Below are positions 9,156-44,579 of a stretch of DNA of 64,000 bases, one piece after another; within the stretch, counting starts at the first letter, position 1; each line of letters opens with the position of its first letter. Below the pieces are notes generated by a model that had not been told where the DNA came from, searched no databases, and saw only the letters and a program-made list of their open reading frames with translations. The position numbers and the translations under genes are program-made. This stretch comes from an uncultured Alphaproteobacteria bacterium (GTDB lineage Bacteria > Pseudomonadota > Alphaproteobacteria > RF32 > CAG-239). The DNA lies in assembly GCA_944391715.1 (NCBI GenBank), contig CALXUP010000005.1, positions 4,277-68,276 on the forward strand, written 5' to 3'.

Positions 9156-9455
9156 ATGAAACATCTGTTTTTAATTCTTCCCTTTCTGGCGGCTGCCTGC
9201 GCCAATAATGTGGAAGTTACGCGCGAAACCGAATATAAATGCGGAGAAAAGATTGTTCAAGCCGATTTTCTGGATGACGATTCAATGATTCTGCGGGTTG
9301 ACGGTATAAATAACGTGTTGGTAAAAGTTGCCGCGACCTCGGGAAAACGTTTTGAAAATTCGGCCTCAAAAGTTACTTTTATGCAGCAGAACGGCGACTA
9401 TTATCTTTCCATTTCCGGGCATAATTATCCGGTTTGTCAGGAAATCAGCCGTTAG
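9156..9455 (+). CDS. MliC-like lipoprotein (membrane-bound lysozyme inhibitor family), tentative
   Basis: Signal peptide with lipobox LAAAC; two Cys and SGKRF...NGDYY resembling MliC SGARY...KGDEA motifs; RBS aaggat. Confidence 0.45.
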   Translation: MKHLFLILPFLAAACANNVEVTRETEYKCGEKIVQADFLDDDSMILRVDGINNVLVKVAATSGKRFENSASKVTFMQQNGDYYLSISGHNYPVCQEISR

Positions 9456-9483
9456 CGGGATACAGGAAATTTTATTTTATCCG

Positions 9484-9520
9484 GCGCGCTTGTTACAGGC
9501 GCGCTGTTTTTGCTTATTTG
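9484..9520 (+). terminator. Rho-independent terminator after the MliC-like gene
   Basis: gcgcgc ttgttacag gcgcgc stem followed by tgttttt. Confidence 0.5.
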
Positions 9521-9605
9521 AACAATTTTATAAGAAGAAAAAATGGTTGATTGTGATGAATAATCATCTAAACTAAATTCTGGATAATAAAAAGGAGTTC
9601 AAACA

Positions 9606-10001
9606 ATGAAATTATGGTCAAAAGAAGCTCGTGTATTGGGCGGTATGTATGGTGTTTTAGAAACTCCTTTTTCTTTCTCAGGAGTTGAGCTTATTTCCGA
9701 TGTTGTATTTTTAGCGTTCATCGTTTGCGCAATAATGCTCCTTTTTAATAAAACGCCGGGATTTATTTCTTTTGTTATGAGCAAACATCCGCAAACTGCA
9801 TATTATCTGGCTGCGATTGGCTGGATCCCTTATCTTATGATTATTATCGGTTTTGCGATGATAAGCAGTTATCAGATTTTCGGTTATACTGATGTTGTAT
9901 TGGAACATTTGTTGTTCGGGTTAGCTATTTCAGCGCTTCTTGCCGCCGTTGTTTCTTTGATCGTCGCTTACATCACGGCCAGGAAAAGAATTAAAAAATA
10001 A
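9606..10001 (+). CDS. Small 4-TM membrane protein, unknown function; GC about 37%, lower than its neighbours
   Basis: Strong RBS aaaggag; four hydrophobic helices; AT-rich codon choice (tta, gtt, att) unlike flanking genes. Confidence 0.5.
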   Translation: MKLWSKEARVLGGMYGVLETPFSFSGVELISDVVFLAFIVCAIMLLFNKTPGFISFVMSKHPQTAYYLAAIGWIPYLMIIIGFAMISSYQIFGYTDVVLEHLLFGLAISALLAAVVSLIVAYITARKRIKK

Positions 10002-10056
10002 ATTTGAACTGAGGTTATCTCCGAGTATTTTCCGGAACTTGTATAATCGGATAGTA

Positions 10057-10431
10057 AAAAAACCCTCCATTGGAGGGTAATATATTGGCGCGACCCCAAC
10101 GGATTAGGGACTCCCGCGGGCGGGGCCTCCTTGCGCCGTAAGCCTCGCGCTTCTTAAAATCGCGCTCGTCAACTATCCGCTTCGAACTCTACGAGTTCAA
10201 ATCTCGGAGCTCGCATACTAAAACACCAAAACCCTCCATTGGAGGGTAATATATTGGCGCAACCCCAACGGATTAGGGACTCCCGCGGGCGGGGCCTCCT
10301 TGCGCCGTAAGCCTCGCGCTTCTTAAAATCGCGCTCGTCAACTATCCGCTTCGAACTCTACGAGTTCAAATCTCGGAGCTCGCATACTAAAACACCAAAA
10401 CCCTCCATTGGAGGGTTTTGGTGTTTTAGTG
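10057..10431. repeat. Tandem 169-bp repeats (2.2 copies), each ending in a ccctcc-att-ggaggg hairpin and carrying a segment resembling the tRNA-Glu 3' end
   Basis: Units at 10063, 10232 and 10401 (period 169) are near-identical; tggcgcgaccccaacggatt resembles tRNA-Glu tggcgaccccaacgagatt; the last partial copy forms the perfect hairpin ctaaaacaccaaaaccctcc att ggagggttttggtgttttag. Confidence 0.8.
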
Positions 10432-10505
10432 GCGACCCCAACGAGATTCGAACTCGTGTTCCCACCGTGAAAGGGTGGTGTCCTAGGCCTCTAGACGATG
10501 GGGTC
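10430..10505 (-). tRNA. tRNA-Glu (anticodon UUC), CCA encoded
   Basis: Minus-strand reading GACCCCATCGTCTAGAGGCCTAGGACACCACCCTTTCACGGTGGGAACACGAGTTCGAATCTCGTTGGGGTCGCCA folds as a canonical cloverleaf with anticodon loop CTTTCAC. Confidence 0.9.
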
Positions 10506-10586
10506 ATTAGAAACTAGCTGCATATATAAAGGTTATTTTTATTCCGGTCAAGATATTTTTTCAGATTTTTGTATTTTTTTTGTTTT

Positions 10587-11825
10587 TTATTGCGGAATGC
10601 CCGTTACCTCAACGATTTTGCTCATCGGCACCAGTTTTATTCCCTTTTTTTCAAGTTCCGGCAGCCAGGCCGCTAAAGCCTGGAACGTGCCGCTTTTCGG
10701 ATGGCCGATTGCCACGGCATAGCCGTTCTTTCTGGCAATCCGTTCCGTCAGGCGCAATTGACCGTTAATATAATCGACATTATTTTCGTTATCCAAAAAA
10801 ACATGCCGGTGGGCATAAACTACGCCGTGTTTTCCGGCTTCCACCCTGCCCACAGAACGCGGCGATGTTTTGGAATCCAAAAAGAACAGCCCATGCTCTT
10901 TTAAAACTTCCATAACTGCCCCCAGCCGTTCCGAATCTTCAGTAAACAGGCTTCCCATATGATTGTTAATGCCTTTGACGCCGTCAAATTTTGACAACAT
11001 TGTTTCAAGCCTCTGCCTGATTTCTTCCGGCGGCATTTTTGTGGTCAAAACATCCGGTGCCGCGTCTTTGTTGCTTTTGGCCTGCATCGGAACGTGAATC
11101 ATAATTTCGTGTCCTGCTGACCGGGCTGCCGCCACCTGCTCGGGAAGTTTGCGCGCATAGGTCAGAAAAGACGAAGTCAGCGGCGCTTTCAAAGATATGA
11201 TGTCTGCCGTACGTTTCGGGCTTATTCCCATGTCGTCAATCACAACGGCAACCACCGGCTGCGGCCCGAAATACAGGGGGCGTTTGGACGGCAACACTCC
11301 CATTTCCCGAATGCTGCGATGGCCATGGTAAATATGATAATCTTTGCCATATTGGCGTATGGCTTCGGCATCTGACATTTCCTCTTCATCAAGATAAGCT
11401 TCCGAAGGAAGTTCTTCTTCATAGGTTTCCTCAATCTTATCCATTTCGGCAATGTCATTAATCGTGGCGGCATCTTCTTCCGGATTGAGCATCCTAACTG
11501 CCAAATCAGAGTTAAAATCCTCGGAATTGATTATAAAAACTTCTTCATTTTCGGGCTGAGAGAGAAAAGGTGTGCTGGTGTCAATACAGCTCAATCCTTC
11601 AGGGCATGACCGGATTTCTGTTTTTTCGGCATCTTCCATCCGGCTTATTTCTATTTTTGTACCAACACTTTCGGGAGTGCTTTCAGGATGTACATTCTCA
11701 ATGGTTTCAAAGAAAAACCAGGTAAAAGAAAAGGCCAGAAAGATTCCCAACAACGTTCGGCACAGCATCCGAATCCGGTTGAAAAATATTGAACGTTCCC
11801 GCCAGTCTTTTTTCTGAAAAAACAA
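10587..11825 (-). CDS. Divergent polysaccharide deacetylase family protein (YibQ-like) with an N-terminal TM helix and acidic linker
   Basis: N-terminal TM, Asp/Glu-rich region, then C-terminal motifs of the divergent polysaccharide deacetylase family (AVVIDDMG...HVPM...NHMGS). Confidence 0.65.
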   Translation of the reverse strand: MFFQKKDWRERSIFFNRIRMLCRTLLGIFLAFSFTWFFFETIENVHPESTPESVGTKIEISRMEDAEKTEIRSCPEGLSCIDTSTPFLSQPENEEVFIINSEDFNSDLAVRMLNPEEDAATINDIAEMDKIEETYEEELPSEAYLDEEEMSDAEAIRQYGKDYHIYHGHRSIREMGVLPSKRPLYFGPQPVVAVVIDDMGISPKRTADIISLKAPLTSSFLTYARKLPEQVAAARSAGHEIMIHVPMQAKSNKDAAPDVLTTKMPPEEIRQRLETMLSKFDGVKGINNHMGSLFTEDSERLGAVMEVLKEHGLFFLDSKTSPRSVGRVEAGKHGVVYAHRHVFLDNENNVDYINGQLRLTERIARKNGYAVAIGHPKSGTFQALAAWLPELEKKGIKLVPMSKIVEVTGIPQ

Positions 11826-11883
11826 AAGTACAATCCTTTTTTTGACACAGAAATTGCGTTTCTGCGCGGATTGTAAACGCTGT

Positions 11884-11899
11884 CTTGAAAATTTTCAAG
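11884..11899. promoter_or_regulatory. Perfect 16-bp palindrome cttgaaaattttcaag in the divergent promoter region
   Basis: Exact inverted repeat between the deacetylase gene and the 11984 gene. Confidence 0.3.
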
Positions 11900-11983
11900 A
11901 AATATATCTTTTTTTTGCAAAAAATGACTGGATTTAAATGGTTTTTAAGACTATATTGTCATTGAAAATTAGAGGGATAAGAG

Positions 11984-13039
11984 ATGAAAAAAGATGTAAA
12001 AGGATTTTTGAAAGCTGTCAGAAACAAAATGCTGACATTGGGACTGACCGTATCCGGGCTCGGAACGGCAGCAACGACTGTCGCAAATCCGGGCGGAAAT
12101 GCTCCGACAACCGATGATTCCCGCGTGGAAAATGCATCAATCGATTATAAAAAGATTTCATTGCACCCGGTTGAATATAAGACCAGCGGCATTTATAAAG
12201 GCGGAATTGAGGTTAATTTTGCCGAATGTACGCCGCATCATCTGGGGTGGGTTTTTGAATCCGGCATGAAACCCGGAATTGTTGATCCGTCAAATTCTTA
12301 CATCGGCCTGTTCCAGATGGATTTGGGAGCAACGATGGCAACCTTTTTGAAAGAAAACAAAAACAAATATCCGAAACTGGCTGCCCTGGGAAAAACAAAA
12401 GAAATGCGCACGATTAAAAACGGGCCGTTTCAAAAATTGTGGAAAGAGTTGGACAGCCCGGAATTTCGCAAAGCTCAATCCGATTTTATGGATAAGCATA
12501 AGTATGCTCCGATTTTTGAAGAATTGCGCGACATTGACGGGCTTGATATAGACAAACGGGGAGATGCTTTACGCGGTGCCGTCATGTCGGCGGCCAATCA
12601 ATATCGTAAGGATGTGGTCATAAAAATGATAAAGGCCGCATATCTTGAGGCTGCTAAGGACAAAAGCCCCAAAGACGTTAAAACAGAAGATATTATCAGC
12701 AATTTTTACGATCAGAGGGTTAAACGCTCACCCAGCTTAAAGACCCGCCTGCTCGGTACAACCAATAAAAAAGGCAAAAAAGTTATCTTCGGCGAGAAAG
12801 ATATGGCTTTGGATTATCAGCATTATCTTGAAAATACGCAGATGGTTCTGCTGGCCGAAAAAGAGAAGGAAAAAACACTTGCCATTCCGCTCAAAGAGTG
12901 GTCCAGAAGCGTGGCGGACATTATCCCCAAAGATACAACCAAAGAAGTTATATCTCCGTTGGCGCTCGGTCCGGGTTTGCCCGAAAATAATATTTATAAA
13001 AAGCGTGCCCTCATCAACCGCTTGAAAAGATCACGCTGA
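11984..13039 (+). CDS. Secreted hypothetical protein, 351 aa, unknown function
   Basis: Signal peptide; RBS agagggat; own terminator at 13050-13080; no recognisable family motifs. Confidence 0.5.
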   Translation: MKKDVKGFLKAVRNKMLTLGLTVSGLGTAATTVANPGGNAPTTDDSRVENASIDYKKISLHPVEYKTSGIYKGGIEVNFAECTPHHLGWVFESGMKPGIVDPSNSYIGLFQMDLGATMATFLKENKNKYPKLAALGKTKEMRTIKNGPFQKLWKELDSPEFRKAQSDFMDKHKYAPIFEELRDIDGLDIDKRGDALRGAVMSAANQYRKDVVIKMIKAAYLEAAKDKSPKDVKTEDIISNFYDQRVKRSPSLKTRLLGTTNKKGKKVIFGEKDMALDYQHYLENTQMVLLAEKEKEKTLAIPLKEWSRSVADIIPKDTTKEVISPLALGPGLPENNIYKKRALINRLKRSR

Positions 13040-13049
13040 TTTTTGATTA

Positions 13050-13080
13050 AGCTCCTTTTTGCGAGGAGCTTTTTTCTTGA
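13050..13080 (+). terminator. Rho-independent terminator
   Basis: aagctcct ttttgcg aggagctt followed by ttttttctt. Confidence 0.55.
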
Positions 13081-13090
13081 CTTTTTTACA

Positions 13091-13105
13091 GAACTAAAAT
13101 AGAAC
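13091..13105. promoter_or_regulatory. Alphaproteobacterial-type LexA box (GAAC-N7-GAAC) upstream of lexA
   Basis: gaactaaaatagaac lies 40 nt upstream of the lexA ATG. Confidence 0.6.
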
Positions 13106-13145
13106 ATTTACATATGTTTCAAAATTGAGGATAAGGATTGATTTT

Positions 13146-13802
13146 ATGCTGACCCAGAAACAATACAAACTGTTGATGTTTATTAATAAAGTCATTAAAG
13201 AAACCGGCTGTCCGCCTTCGTTTGACGAGATGAAAGACGCCATCGGGCTTAAATCGAAATCCGGAATCCATAATATGATTGAAGCATTGTGCGAACGTAA
13301 TTTTATCAAACGCCTGCCTCATAAAGCGCGCGCCCTTGAGATTGTGCGGATGCCAAAGCTCAAGCCAAGTTCCGTTATTGAAGAAGAAAGAAAACGCGAA
13401 CAGGCCATCCAAAACGGTATGATTGAAATTCCGTTTTACGGACAAGTCGCCGCCGGACTGCCGATTGACGCCATTGCCGATGAAAACGAAAAGATTTTTG
13501 TTCCGTTTGATATGGTTTCGCGCGGATCGCATTATGCCCTTCATGTTTCGGGCGATTCAATGAAAGAGGCCGGTATCTTAAACGGCGACGTTGTCATTAT
13601 CAAAAAAACGGAAACTGCCGAAAACGGCGATATCGTCGTCGCCCTGGTTGATGATGACGTAGCGACGCTGAAAAAATTTAAACGAGAGAAAGATACGGTT
13701 ATGCTTATTCCGTTTAATGAAAATTATGATGTGCAAAAATATCTGGCTTCCCGGGTAAAAATCCAAGGGAAATTGGCCGGGCTTATTCGTAAATACGCCT
13801 AG
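13146..13802 (+). CDS. lexA: LexA repressor
   Basis: Start MLTQKQYKLL; winged HTH, Ala-Gly cleavage site (VAAGLP), S24 peptidase Ser (GDSM) and Lys; alpha-type linker insertion. Confidence 0.85.
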   Translation: MLTQKQYKLLMFINKVIKETGCPPSFDEMKDAIGLKSKSGIHNMIEALCERNFIKRLPHKARALEIVRMPKLKPSSVIEEERKREQAIQNGMIEIPFYGQVAAGLPIDAIADENEKIFVPFDMVSRGSHYALHVSGDSMKEAGILNGDVVIIKKTETAENGDIVVALVDDDVATLKKFKREKDTVMLIPFNENYDVQKYLASRVKIQGKLAGLIRKYA

Positions 13803-44492: not shown

Positions 44493-44579
44493 GCGCTTGT
44501 GGCGGAATTGGTAGACGCTGCAGACTTAAAATCTGTTGGCCGCAAGGCCGTGCCGGTTCAAGTCCGGCCTAGCGCACCA
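44493..44579 (+). tRNA. tRNA-Leu (anticodon UAA), CCA encoded
   Basis: GCGCTTGTGGCGGAATTGGTAGACGC...anticodon loop CTTAAAA...long variable arm...GGTTCAAGTCCGGCCTAGCGCACCA. Confidence 0.9.

Follow-up and report, generated by a model that had tools for sequence, protein, structure and literature searches.

RtT repeats are in Rfam and in every Escherichia coli annotation; they are said to have been described originally by Egan and Landy in 1978 and by Rossi et al. in 1981, and the original papers on the tyrT operon reportedly date from the 1970s. The E. coli tyrT unit that follows tRNA-Tyr is 178 bp long and "repeated 3.14 times" (Rfam RF00391). According to Bosl and Kersten (1991), as cited in PMC3318445, RtT is released as a stable RNA of ~170 nt when the tRNA operon transcript is processed, and the small RNA RttR is thought to modulate the stringent response, its mode of action being unknown (bioRxiv 10.1101/2024.07.17.603846). 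In the tyrT-tyrV-rttR locus of E. coli K-12 we find four RtT units (133-137 bits), built from an inverted copy (GGGGAAGGATGAGAAGCTTCG), the loop ACC, a left half (AAGGTTCGA), a core of ~69 nt, and a right half (AATCCTTCCCCCACCACCA), and the annotated 3' end of RttR is the CCA of the first unit after tyrV. RtT arrays are also variable in copy number, with one to six annotated copies at tyrT-tyrV (5,426 complete E. coli genomes; matches H41-H80) and a single tRNA-Tyr gene at that locus in some strains. Here we describe a tandem array behind the tRNA-Glu gene in a 64-kb stretch of DNA from an uncultured gut alphaproteobacterium (contig CALXUP010000005.1; this whole stretch is called the window). 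We think it probable that the array is an RtT-like, tRNA-linked repeat in which a structured noncoding core, here called M1, sits within a copy of the adjacent tRNA 3' end.

A first-pass annotation, made from the letters alone, had reported 169-bp tandem repeats with terminator hairpins behind tRNA-Glu, and ARAGORN, Rfam, and Tandem Repeats Finder bear this out. The array (10059-10416) has a period of 169, 2.1 copies, 99% matches, and 0 indels according to Tandem Repeats Finder, and one base separates its two copies (G at 10092, A at 10261). Three copies of the hairpin CCCTCCATTGGAGGG are present (at 10063, 10232, and 10401) where chance predicts 0.06, and each of the two long subsegments quoted in that annotation occurs exactly twice, versus 0 expected. 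Read in the sense of the tRNA, the features of the locus are as follows.

10430-10505, minus strand: tRNA-Glu, anticodon UUC, CCA encoded (ARAGORN; Rfam tRNA, 58.8 bits)
10387-10429, minus strand: hairpin T1, terminator-type, directly after the tRNA CCA (sequence, by eye)
10361-10386, minus strand: inverted copy (I) of unit A, TATGCGAGCTCCGAGATTTGAACTCG, a diverged reverse complement of the T-arm and acceptor 3' strand of tRNA-Glu
10359-10360, minus strand: spacer TA of unit A (sequence)
10352-10358, minus strand: direct left half-site of unit A, GAGTTCG, the T-stem 5' strand and T-loop start (sequence)
10275-10351, minus strand: M1 core of unit A, 77 nt, AAGCGGATAGTTGACGAGCGCG...CTTACGGCGCAAGGAGGCCCCGCCCGCGGGAGTCCCT (covariance model R1, alignment, covariation)
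10255-10274, minus strand: direct right half of unit A, AATC-CGTTGGGGTTGCGCCA, the T-loop end, T-stem 3' strand, acceptor 3' strand, and CCA
10218-10254, minus strand: hairpin T2, chimeric (terminator scan at 10231-10247)
10192-10217, minus strand: inverted copy of unit B (unit A shifted by 169 bp)
10190-10191, minus strand: TA of unit B (unit A shifted by 169 bp)
10183-10189, minus strand: direct left half-site of unit B (unit A shifted by 169 bp)
10106-10182, minus strand: M1 core of unit B (R1 match at 10089-10212, 127 bits)
10086-10105, minus strand: direct right half of unit B, AATCCGTTGGGGTCGCGCCA (sequence)
10056-10085, minus strand: terminal intrinsic terminator T3, ATATATTA-CCCTCC-AAT-GGAGGG-TTTTTTT (terminator scan at 10062-10078)
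9606-10001, plus strand: gene for a 131-amino-acid (aa) membrane protein, convergent with the array; context, not part of the element (open reading frame [ORF])

Each unit thus begins with an inverted copy of the tRNA 3' end, followed after 2 nt by the T-stem 5' strand plus TTCG, the 77-nt core, and then AATC-CGTTGGGGTYGCGCCA, which completes the T-loop and adds the T-stem 3' strand, acceptor, and CCA, before a terminator hairpin closes the unit. The core is placed exactly between TTCG and AATC, and the two direct pieces, when joined, make up the T-arm sequence of tRNA-Glu. R1 matches unit A at 10258-10381 with 127 bits, and the inverted copy and GAGTTCG of this unit are predicted to pair as a 9-bp hairpin. 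The units end in AATCCGTTGGGGTYGCGCCA, compared with AATCTCGTTGGGGTCGCCA in the tRNA, and this direct right flank scores best against its own tRNA, in agreement with the earlier suggestion that the repeats carry segments derived from the tRNA-Glu 3' end; the inverted copy has diverged from the tRNA by 30-40%, yet in unit A it too, when reverse-complemented, has its own tRNA as the best-scoring one. By eye, T1 has an extended stem of 20 bp (CTAAAACACCAAAACCCTCC/GGAGGGTTTTGGTGTTTTAG, loop AAT) with a U-rich 3' side, and on reading the stem is prolonged where the 3' end of the tRNA and the segment that follows are complementary. The T-runs of the hairpins lie on the minus strand, which is that of the tRNA (the scan lists 10062-10078 and 10231-10247), and only on this strand is each unit followed by a terminator-type hairpin. 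Within the units, neither ARAGORN nor Rfam found a tRNA or a transfer-messenger RNA (tmRNA), and Rfam run on 9400-10700 of the window at E <= 10 returned only the tRNA and noise (miRNA-type matches to long hairpins). The possibility that the units are coding was rejected, as a 15-codon ORF (MRAPRFELVEFEADS) in the unit is not kept behind other tRNAs. As a separate observation, each core carries on the plus strand a sequence that looks sigma-70-like by eye (TTGCGC-18 nt-TAAAAT; 10298-10327 and 10129-10158) and is not in the promoter scan.

As judged from the sequence, this anatomy is identical to that of E. coli RtT. Both kinds of unit lie directly downstream of a tRNA gene and on its strand, with a tandem period of 169 bp in the window and 178 bp in E. 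coli. They share one order of segments, namely an inverted T-arm/acceptor copy, a short loop, the T-stem 5' strand plus TTCG(A), a GC-rich core (77 nt in M1 versus ~69 nt in RtT), and AATC plus the tRNA 3' end with CCA. The inverted copy and the direct T-stem 5' strand give the closing helix of the RtT consensus in Rfam, and TATGCGAGCTCCGAGATTTGAACTCG-TA-GAGTTCG in the window has the same layout. Copy number varies among strains in both, from one to at least four in the window species and from one to six in E. coli. Neither the RtT nor the M1 units need a conserved ORF as an explanation, although the tpr ORF (29 codons by translation) overlaps the units of E. coli whereas the M1 units are without a conserved ORF. 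A further difference is that M1 units are flanked on both sides by intrinsic-terminator hairpins, in contrast to the 59-nt unstructured spacer of E. coli. In line with the shared design, the RF00391 model aligns end to end with a unit of another core type, M2alt, behind tRNA-Gln (locus L098, 999-1134; L-numbers label the compared loci), with 28.3 bits and E = 0.0013, a match that comes from a permissive threshold, the gathering score of RF00391 being 45 bits; in this alignment, too, the segments follow one another in the order given above.

The search for further copies that the first-pass annotation had recommended yields none elsewhere in the 64-kb window, but nhmmer and a scan of metagenomes with a core pattern place the M1 core behind tRNA-Gln(CUG), tRNA-Gln(UUG), tRNA-Asn(GUU), and tRNA-Thr(GGU) in metagenomic contigs. 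Together with the covariance model R1, which was built from 14 sequences, the metagenome scan gives 23 strong M1 matches of 56-138 bits, and wherever the locus of a match includes a tRNA, the match is downstream of it on the same strand. The core of the window is 70-82% identical to the cores behind tRNA-Gln, tRNA-Asn, and tRNA-Thr, while identity between the flanks is only 8-43%; among nine units, the adjacent tRNA is the best-scoring one for the right flank in all nine (9/9) and for the reverse-complemented left flank in eight. The core is conserved from one tRNA to another, and the flanks match whichever tRNA is the host. The length of the M1 hairpin varies, and conserved G-A/A-G mismatches close it. 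Pairing holds in 97% of the cells of the proposed structure, and both partners have changed in four pairs (18 cells); none of 500 shuffles matches this covariation, and slid controls collapse. These comparisons show that one hairpin in the core keeps its pairing through compensatory changes. Rfam at the gathering score reports only tRNAs in seven related loci, and a strict screen for downstream copies of the last 16 nt of the tRNA finds them at 10 of 68 tRNAs, which is an undercount, since the screen misses the window units themselves (1-nt deletion).

Other cores are found at the same position, M2 in L024, L025, and L026 and M2alt in L013 and L098. A related element of ~117 nt, M3, is weakly matched by the M1 model and has no Rfam match. 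It lies behind tRNA terminators (L024 11240-11356; L019 11926-12041; L020 12230-12349; L057 10882-10995 and 11707-11820; L033 1497-1607, minus strand), opens with TGGTGAT.., which is complementary to the tRNA end, and closes with ..GACACCA. By eye, its hairpins show apparent compensatory changes, and it shares with M1 the submotif GAAGCG.AGTTGG-hairpin-CCTTACGG.GCAAG.

An exact look-up of the 131-aa protein gave a conspecific set of ten gut-type metagenome contigs and one metagenome-assembled genome, in which we compared the interval between the 131-aa gene and tRNA-Glu. One unit is present in L005 and L006, and two are present in the window, L002, and L009; L003 has one full unit and 1.7 kb of cargo, which takes the place of the core and the right end in another unit; L004 and L010 have two full units plus the same cargo; L008 has four full units, this cargo, and a DUF3800 gene; and L001 and L007 have assembly gaps within the array. 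Among these assemblies, then, unit number differs between strains, and cargo of 1.7-3 kb is located exactly at the array in some of them. The polymorphism suspected in the first-pass annotation, which had called for a comparison of related strains, is therefore present in copy number and in cargo. T2 combines the left context of the terminal hairpin (ATATATTA) with the right context of T1 (TTTTGGTGTTTTAG), a chimera that fits unequal crossing-over within the shared 15-nt CCCTCCAATGGAGGG, which would produce such a hairpin. The cargo lies inside the array at 10397-12170 of L003 and likewise in L004 and L010, at 10397-13150 of L008, and at 820-1700 of L061. One block starts immediately past GAGTTCG, where a core would begin, and contains a 175/181-aa ORF and a 159-aa ORF, neither with a Pfam match. 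In L008 and L061, a 212-aa DUF3800 gene also lies between a break within an M1 core (..GAGGCTTA|) and a ..TTCGCCAGTATATA end. Two further insertions near the locus are strain specific: one in L006 (8496-9946), encoding an AAA_14/DUF4143 ATPase and a 65-aa ORF upstream of the 131-aa gene, and one in L008 (6204-7784), a 526-aa ORF without a Pfam match between ffh and the oxidoreductase gene.

More distant relatives were gathered by scanning a genome collection with the polysaccharide deacetylase encoded next to the array, sister species being those with a deacetylase ~80% identical. The scan points to an uncultured gut alphaproteobacterium, across whose clade the deacetylase-tRNA-Glu arrangement is kept. 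The unit is accompanied by a second unit type in L013, is present in three copies in L016, is truncated in L015, and is absent from L014. Between the window and the sister species the unit is 87-90% identical and the flanking protein genes are 79-80% identical. The content between tRNA-Glu and ffh, compared in L013-L016, ranges from ~2.3 kb (L014) to ~9 kb (L016), and L014 is without the oxidoreductase, the MliC-like gene, and the 131-aa gene. This stretch is a variable region in the clade, as had been suspected in the first-pass annotation. Two observations concern possible unit remnants. Past the last terminator in tRNA sense, 10002-10055 of the window (..TCCGGAAAATACTCGGAGATAACCTCAG..) looks like a decayed unit start (TCCGAGATTTGAACTCGTAGA..), and in L011 a partial unit is joined exactly at the equivalent of this segment (..CTCGTAGACGACCTCAG..).

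By analogy with E. coli RttR, read-through from the tRNA-Glu gene would yield tRNA-sense transcripts of the units. An acceptor/T-stem-like closing helix would then form between the inverted copy and the tRNA-like 3' end, leaving a 3' GCCA tail, and tRNA-processing enzymes may trim each unit to a stable RNA of about 130-165 nt. Copy number would change by hairpin-to-hairpin unequal exchange in the shared 15-nt core. The suggestion in the first-pass annotation of a tRNA-like structured RNA ended by the hairpins comes close to this scheme, to which the RtT anatomy and the covarying core hairpin are now added, transcription being proposed on the E. coli model. Several results weigh against the RtT-like interpretation. 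RF00391 has no match in 9400-10700 of the window even at E <= 10, and the M1 model has no match on the E. coli RtT units. As each model misses the other's units, the core sequences are unrelated as far as these models can tell, and the shared design could be convergent. Since all of the architecture is present and the models fail both ways, we class the window units as RtT-like, with a core family that is new, and set them apart from the members of RF00391. The CCA end is lost in two sister species (..GCTCTG in L013 and ..GCTCCG in L016), the covariation is based on about three haplotypes of one hairpin, and the fold of one unit is not more stable than that of shuffled sequences (z = -0.5), which holds for the opposite strand as well. 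Every unit is preceded by a hairpin of terminator type, so that T1 stands between tRNA-Glu and the first of them; the promoter scan finds no sigma-70-like promoter for the array on the tRNA strand. Because of the T1 hairpin ahead of the first unit and the lack of a promoter-like site, expression of the units may be low.

Three other explanations were weighed. The M1 core could be a small nonautonomous mobile DNA that inserts site-specifically into the T-loop (TTCG/AATC) of copies of tRNA 3' ends, with an enzyme acting in trans, the array and the RNA-like structure being by-products of mobility or single-stranded DNA (ssDNA) structures serving it. We regard this as unlikely on balance, though worth serious consideration, and it is compatible with the RtT-like interpretation, the two not being exclusive. 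It would account for one core behind tRNA-Glu, tRNA-Gln, tRNA-Asn, and tRNA-Thr with the same T-loop junctions and with flanks that match each host tRNA, for the sharing of that position by at least three other cores (M2, M2alt, and M3-related) and by kilobase-sized cargo, for the M1 units that flank a 9.5-kb defense-like island in L094, and for the T-arm-like boxes and serine recombinase-like ORF (by eye only) carried by larger islands in relatives. Against this, there is no target-site duplication, the flanks joining on reading to an uninterrupted T-loop; no transposase or integrase lies beside any examined M1 unit; and M1 is never within a functional tRNA nor away from a tRNA 3' flank. Compensatory changes in a hairpin of variable length are not what a transposition site predicts, although an ssDNA intermediate could, and in E. 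coli the counterpart is an RNA that undergoes processing and whose locus is stable. A neutral variable-number tandem repeat, that is, a decayed partial duplication of the tRNA 3' region maintained by slippage or unequal crossing-over, seems improbable to us. The free variation from one to at least four copies, the L014 locus without the element and the truncated unit of L015, the nonsignificant fold z-score, and the lack of a promoter would all suit it, but such a repeat does not explain a core 70-82% conserved behind four tRNAs in separate contigs with unrelated flanks, compensatory changes that preserve the hairpin, or a unit better conserved than the adjoining coding DNA.

The first-pass annotation had favored attL/attR scars, left by serial integrase-mediated insertion and excision at the tRNA-Glu 3' end, and this we now consider very improbable. 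The site is a true insertion hotspot: conspecific cargo measures 1.7-3 kb, the interval from tRNA-Glu to ffh is variable, islands begin right past the CCA in many relatives, and in L011 an insert of 1.2 kb directly abuts the CCA end of the tRNA and has a short TCGCCA repeat at the other end. Scars predict direct repeats alone, however, and the units add an inverted copy and a conserved structured core of 77 nt at a fixed T-loop position; scars are disfavored because they leave both unexplained. The tandem units are 99-100% identical and are conserved across species and tRNAs, and the same design is present in the stable tyrT operon of E. coli. Pfam reveals no integrase among the ORFs flanking the array, nor do precomputed Pfam assignments for all genes reveal one in the ten 20-kb conspecific loci. 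BLAST searches of the locus against phages and plasmids match the tRNA-Glu part alone, and scans of IMG/VR for the T-arm segment and for the core pattern each give 0 matches and thus no viral attP source.

The RtT-like interpretation remains the one we prefer, and what follows concerns the surroundings of the units. Beside tRNA-Asn in L094 (2350-12200), a 9.5-kb block between M1 units encodes a WYL/WCX protein, PD-(D/E)XK nucleases, a DUF2779/Cas4-like protein, an AAA ATPase, and an ankyrin-repeat protein, with no integrase; it looks like a defense-type island bounded by M1 units. One family of islands starts directly past the tRNA CCA, behind tRNA-Glu in L011 (11409-12610), L020-L022, L029-L031, L043, L044, L048, L059, and L064 and behind tRNA-Gln in L098 (1297 onward). 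These islands have a conserved left end (ATTCAAACGGCAG..CTGCCGTTTTTC terminator) followed by T-arm-like boxes, for example CGAGTTCGAATGTT and TTCCGAACTCG, and those in L021 and L059 end near a 198-aa ORF starting MAVIGYIRVSTDKQ, a putative serine recombinase by eye (19823-20419 in L021 and 16903-17499 in L059).

In the window, the array lies among ordinary chromosomal genes according to Pfam assignments of the flanking ORFs: ffh, rpsP, rimM, a gene for a pyridine-nucleotide-disulfide oxidoreductase with a rhodanese domain, a divergent polysaccharide deacetylase gene, and a gene for a DnaJ-domain protein. The 131-aa gene, which has no Pfam family match, had been taken for low-GC leftover cargo. 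Its surroundings do have a GC content of 35-39%, but this is not distinctive, because 11700-12150 and 12900-13350 of the window are equally low; nor is the gene obviously cargo, since homologues occupy the same position in L011, L013, and L016 (86%, 46%, and 43% identity) and are absent from L014 and L015. The tRNA-Leu gene at 44493-44579 has only a terminator downstream and no unit. Between the deacetylase gene and lexA, a 351-aa ORF (11984-13039) matches the C-terminal domain of VgrG3-like spike proteins of type VI secretion systems and is only 72-89% conserved in close relatives.

A broader proposal is that RtT-type repeats form a widespread modular class, whose units would be RNA/ssDNA recombination and processing modules serving integrase-free cassette exchange at tRNA 3' flanks. 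Such a class would consist of a local tRNA 3'-half scaffold (inverted plus direct copy) with swappable cores (M1, M2, M3-related, and RtT) at one T-loop position, and the same position might also accept kilobase-sized cargo including defense-type genes. We hold this proposal to be doubtful and offer it as speculation. The locus itself yields a testable rule, namely that a core is grafted between the TTCG and AATC of a tRNA 3'-end copy with an inverted copy ahead, and the findings would gain weight if it is true that the tRNA 3'-half scaffold rule is general.

Compared with other known systems, the window units resemble tRNA-targeted islands, for which a T-loop crossover class of tyrosine integrases is said to have been defined by Williams in 2002, in having copies of a tRNA 3' end downstream of the tRNA, T-loop junctions, and a hotspot with strain-specific cargo; they differ in being a 169-bp noncoding tandem with no integrase, an inverted copy of the tRNA end, and a covarying conserved core. 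Miniature inverted-repeat transposable elements and REPIN-type elements are likewise small noncoding units with imperfect inverted ends and one core at several loci, but M1 shows no target-site duplication, is not dispersed (all copies lie behind tRNAs), and has inverted ends that copy the local tRNA, not the element. The DUF3800 RNA motifs (PMC5737381) also have a conserved structured core followed by a Rho-independent terminator and no assigned function, and a DUF3800 gene lies within the array in L008 and L061. Identity with such a motif was rejected: there is no Rfam match at the gathering score, including at the loci with a DUF3800 gene, and the gene is present in only these two M1 loci, as cargo. 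The tRNA-like modules of tmRNA and of the bacterial Y RNA YrlA have a parallel in the predicted closing helix of the units, which by reading looks like an acceptor/T-stem minihelix that ends in a 3' GCCA tail, but the units give neither an ARAGORN tRNA or tmRNA nor an Rfam match to tRNA, tmRNA, or YrlA, and the foreign part of an M1 unit is at the T-loop, unlike that of tRNA-like modules, which is at the anticodon-arm position. Also rejected were an integron attC array (a cluster of attC sites lacking integron integrases, CALIN), as GTTGGGG/CCCCAAC miss RYYYAAC/GTTRRRY by reading and there is no integrase; a Xer/dif-type site, for which the consensus is unfit and the central spacer too short; a retroviral-type primer-binding site, given the 30-40% divergence of the inverted copy and the lack of a reverse transcriptase; and growth of a palindrome from the terminator hairpin, which is not general, the E. 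coli units being without a hairpin between the tRNA end and the inverted copy. The closest system is thus RtT, from which the M1 units differ in host tRNA (Glu, and elsewhere Gln, Asn, and Thr, versus Tyr) and in lineage (uncultured gut Alphaproteobacteria versus Enterobacteria). The same design now appears outside the Enterobacteria, behind at least four other tRNA species and with a different, well-conserved core. The locus provides comparative material for covariation analysis and ties the design to strain-variable cargo at tRNA 3' flanks, and the purpose and origin of RtT repeats could in this way become approachable by comparative genomics combined with experiments in E. coli.

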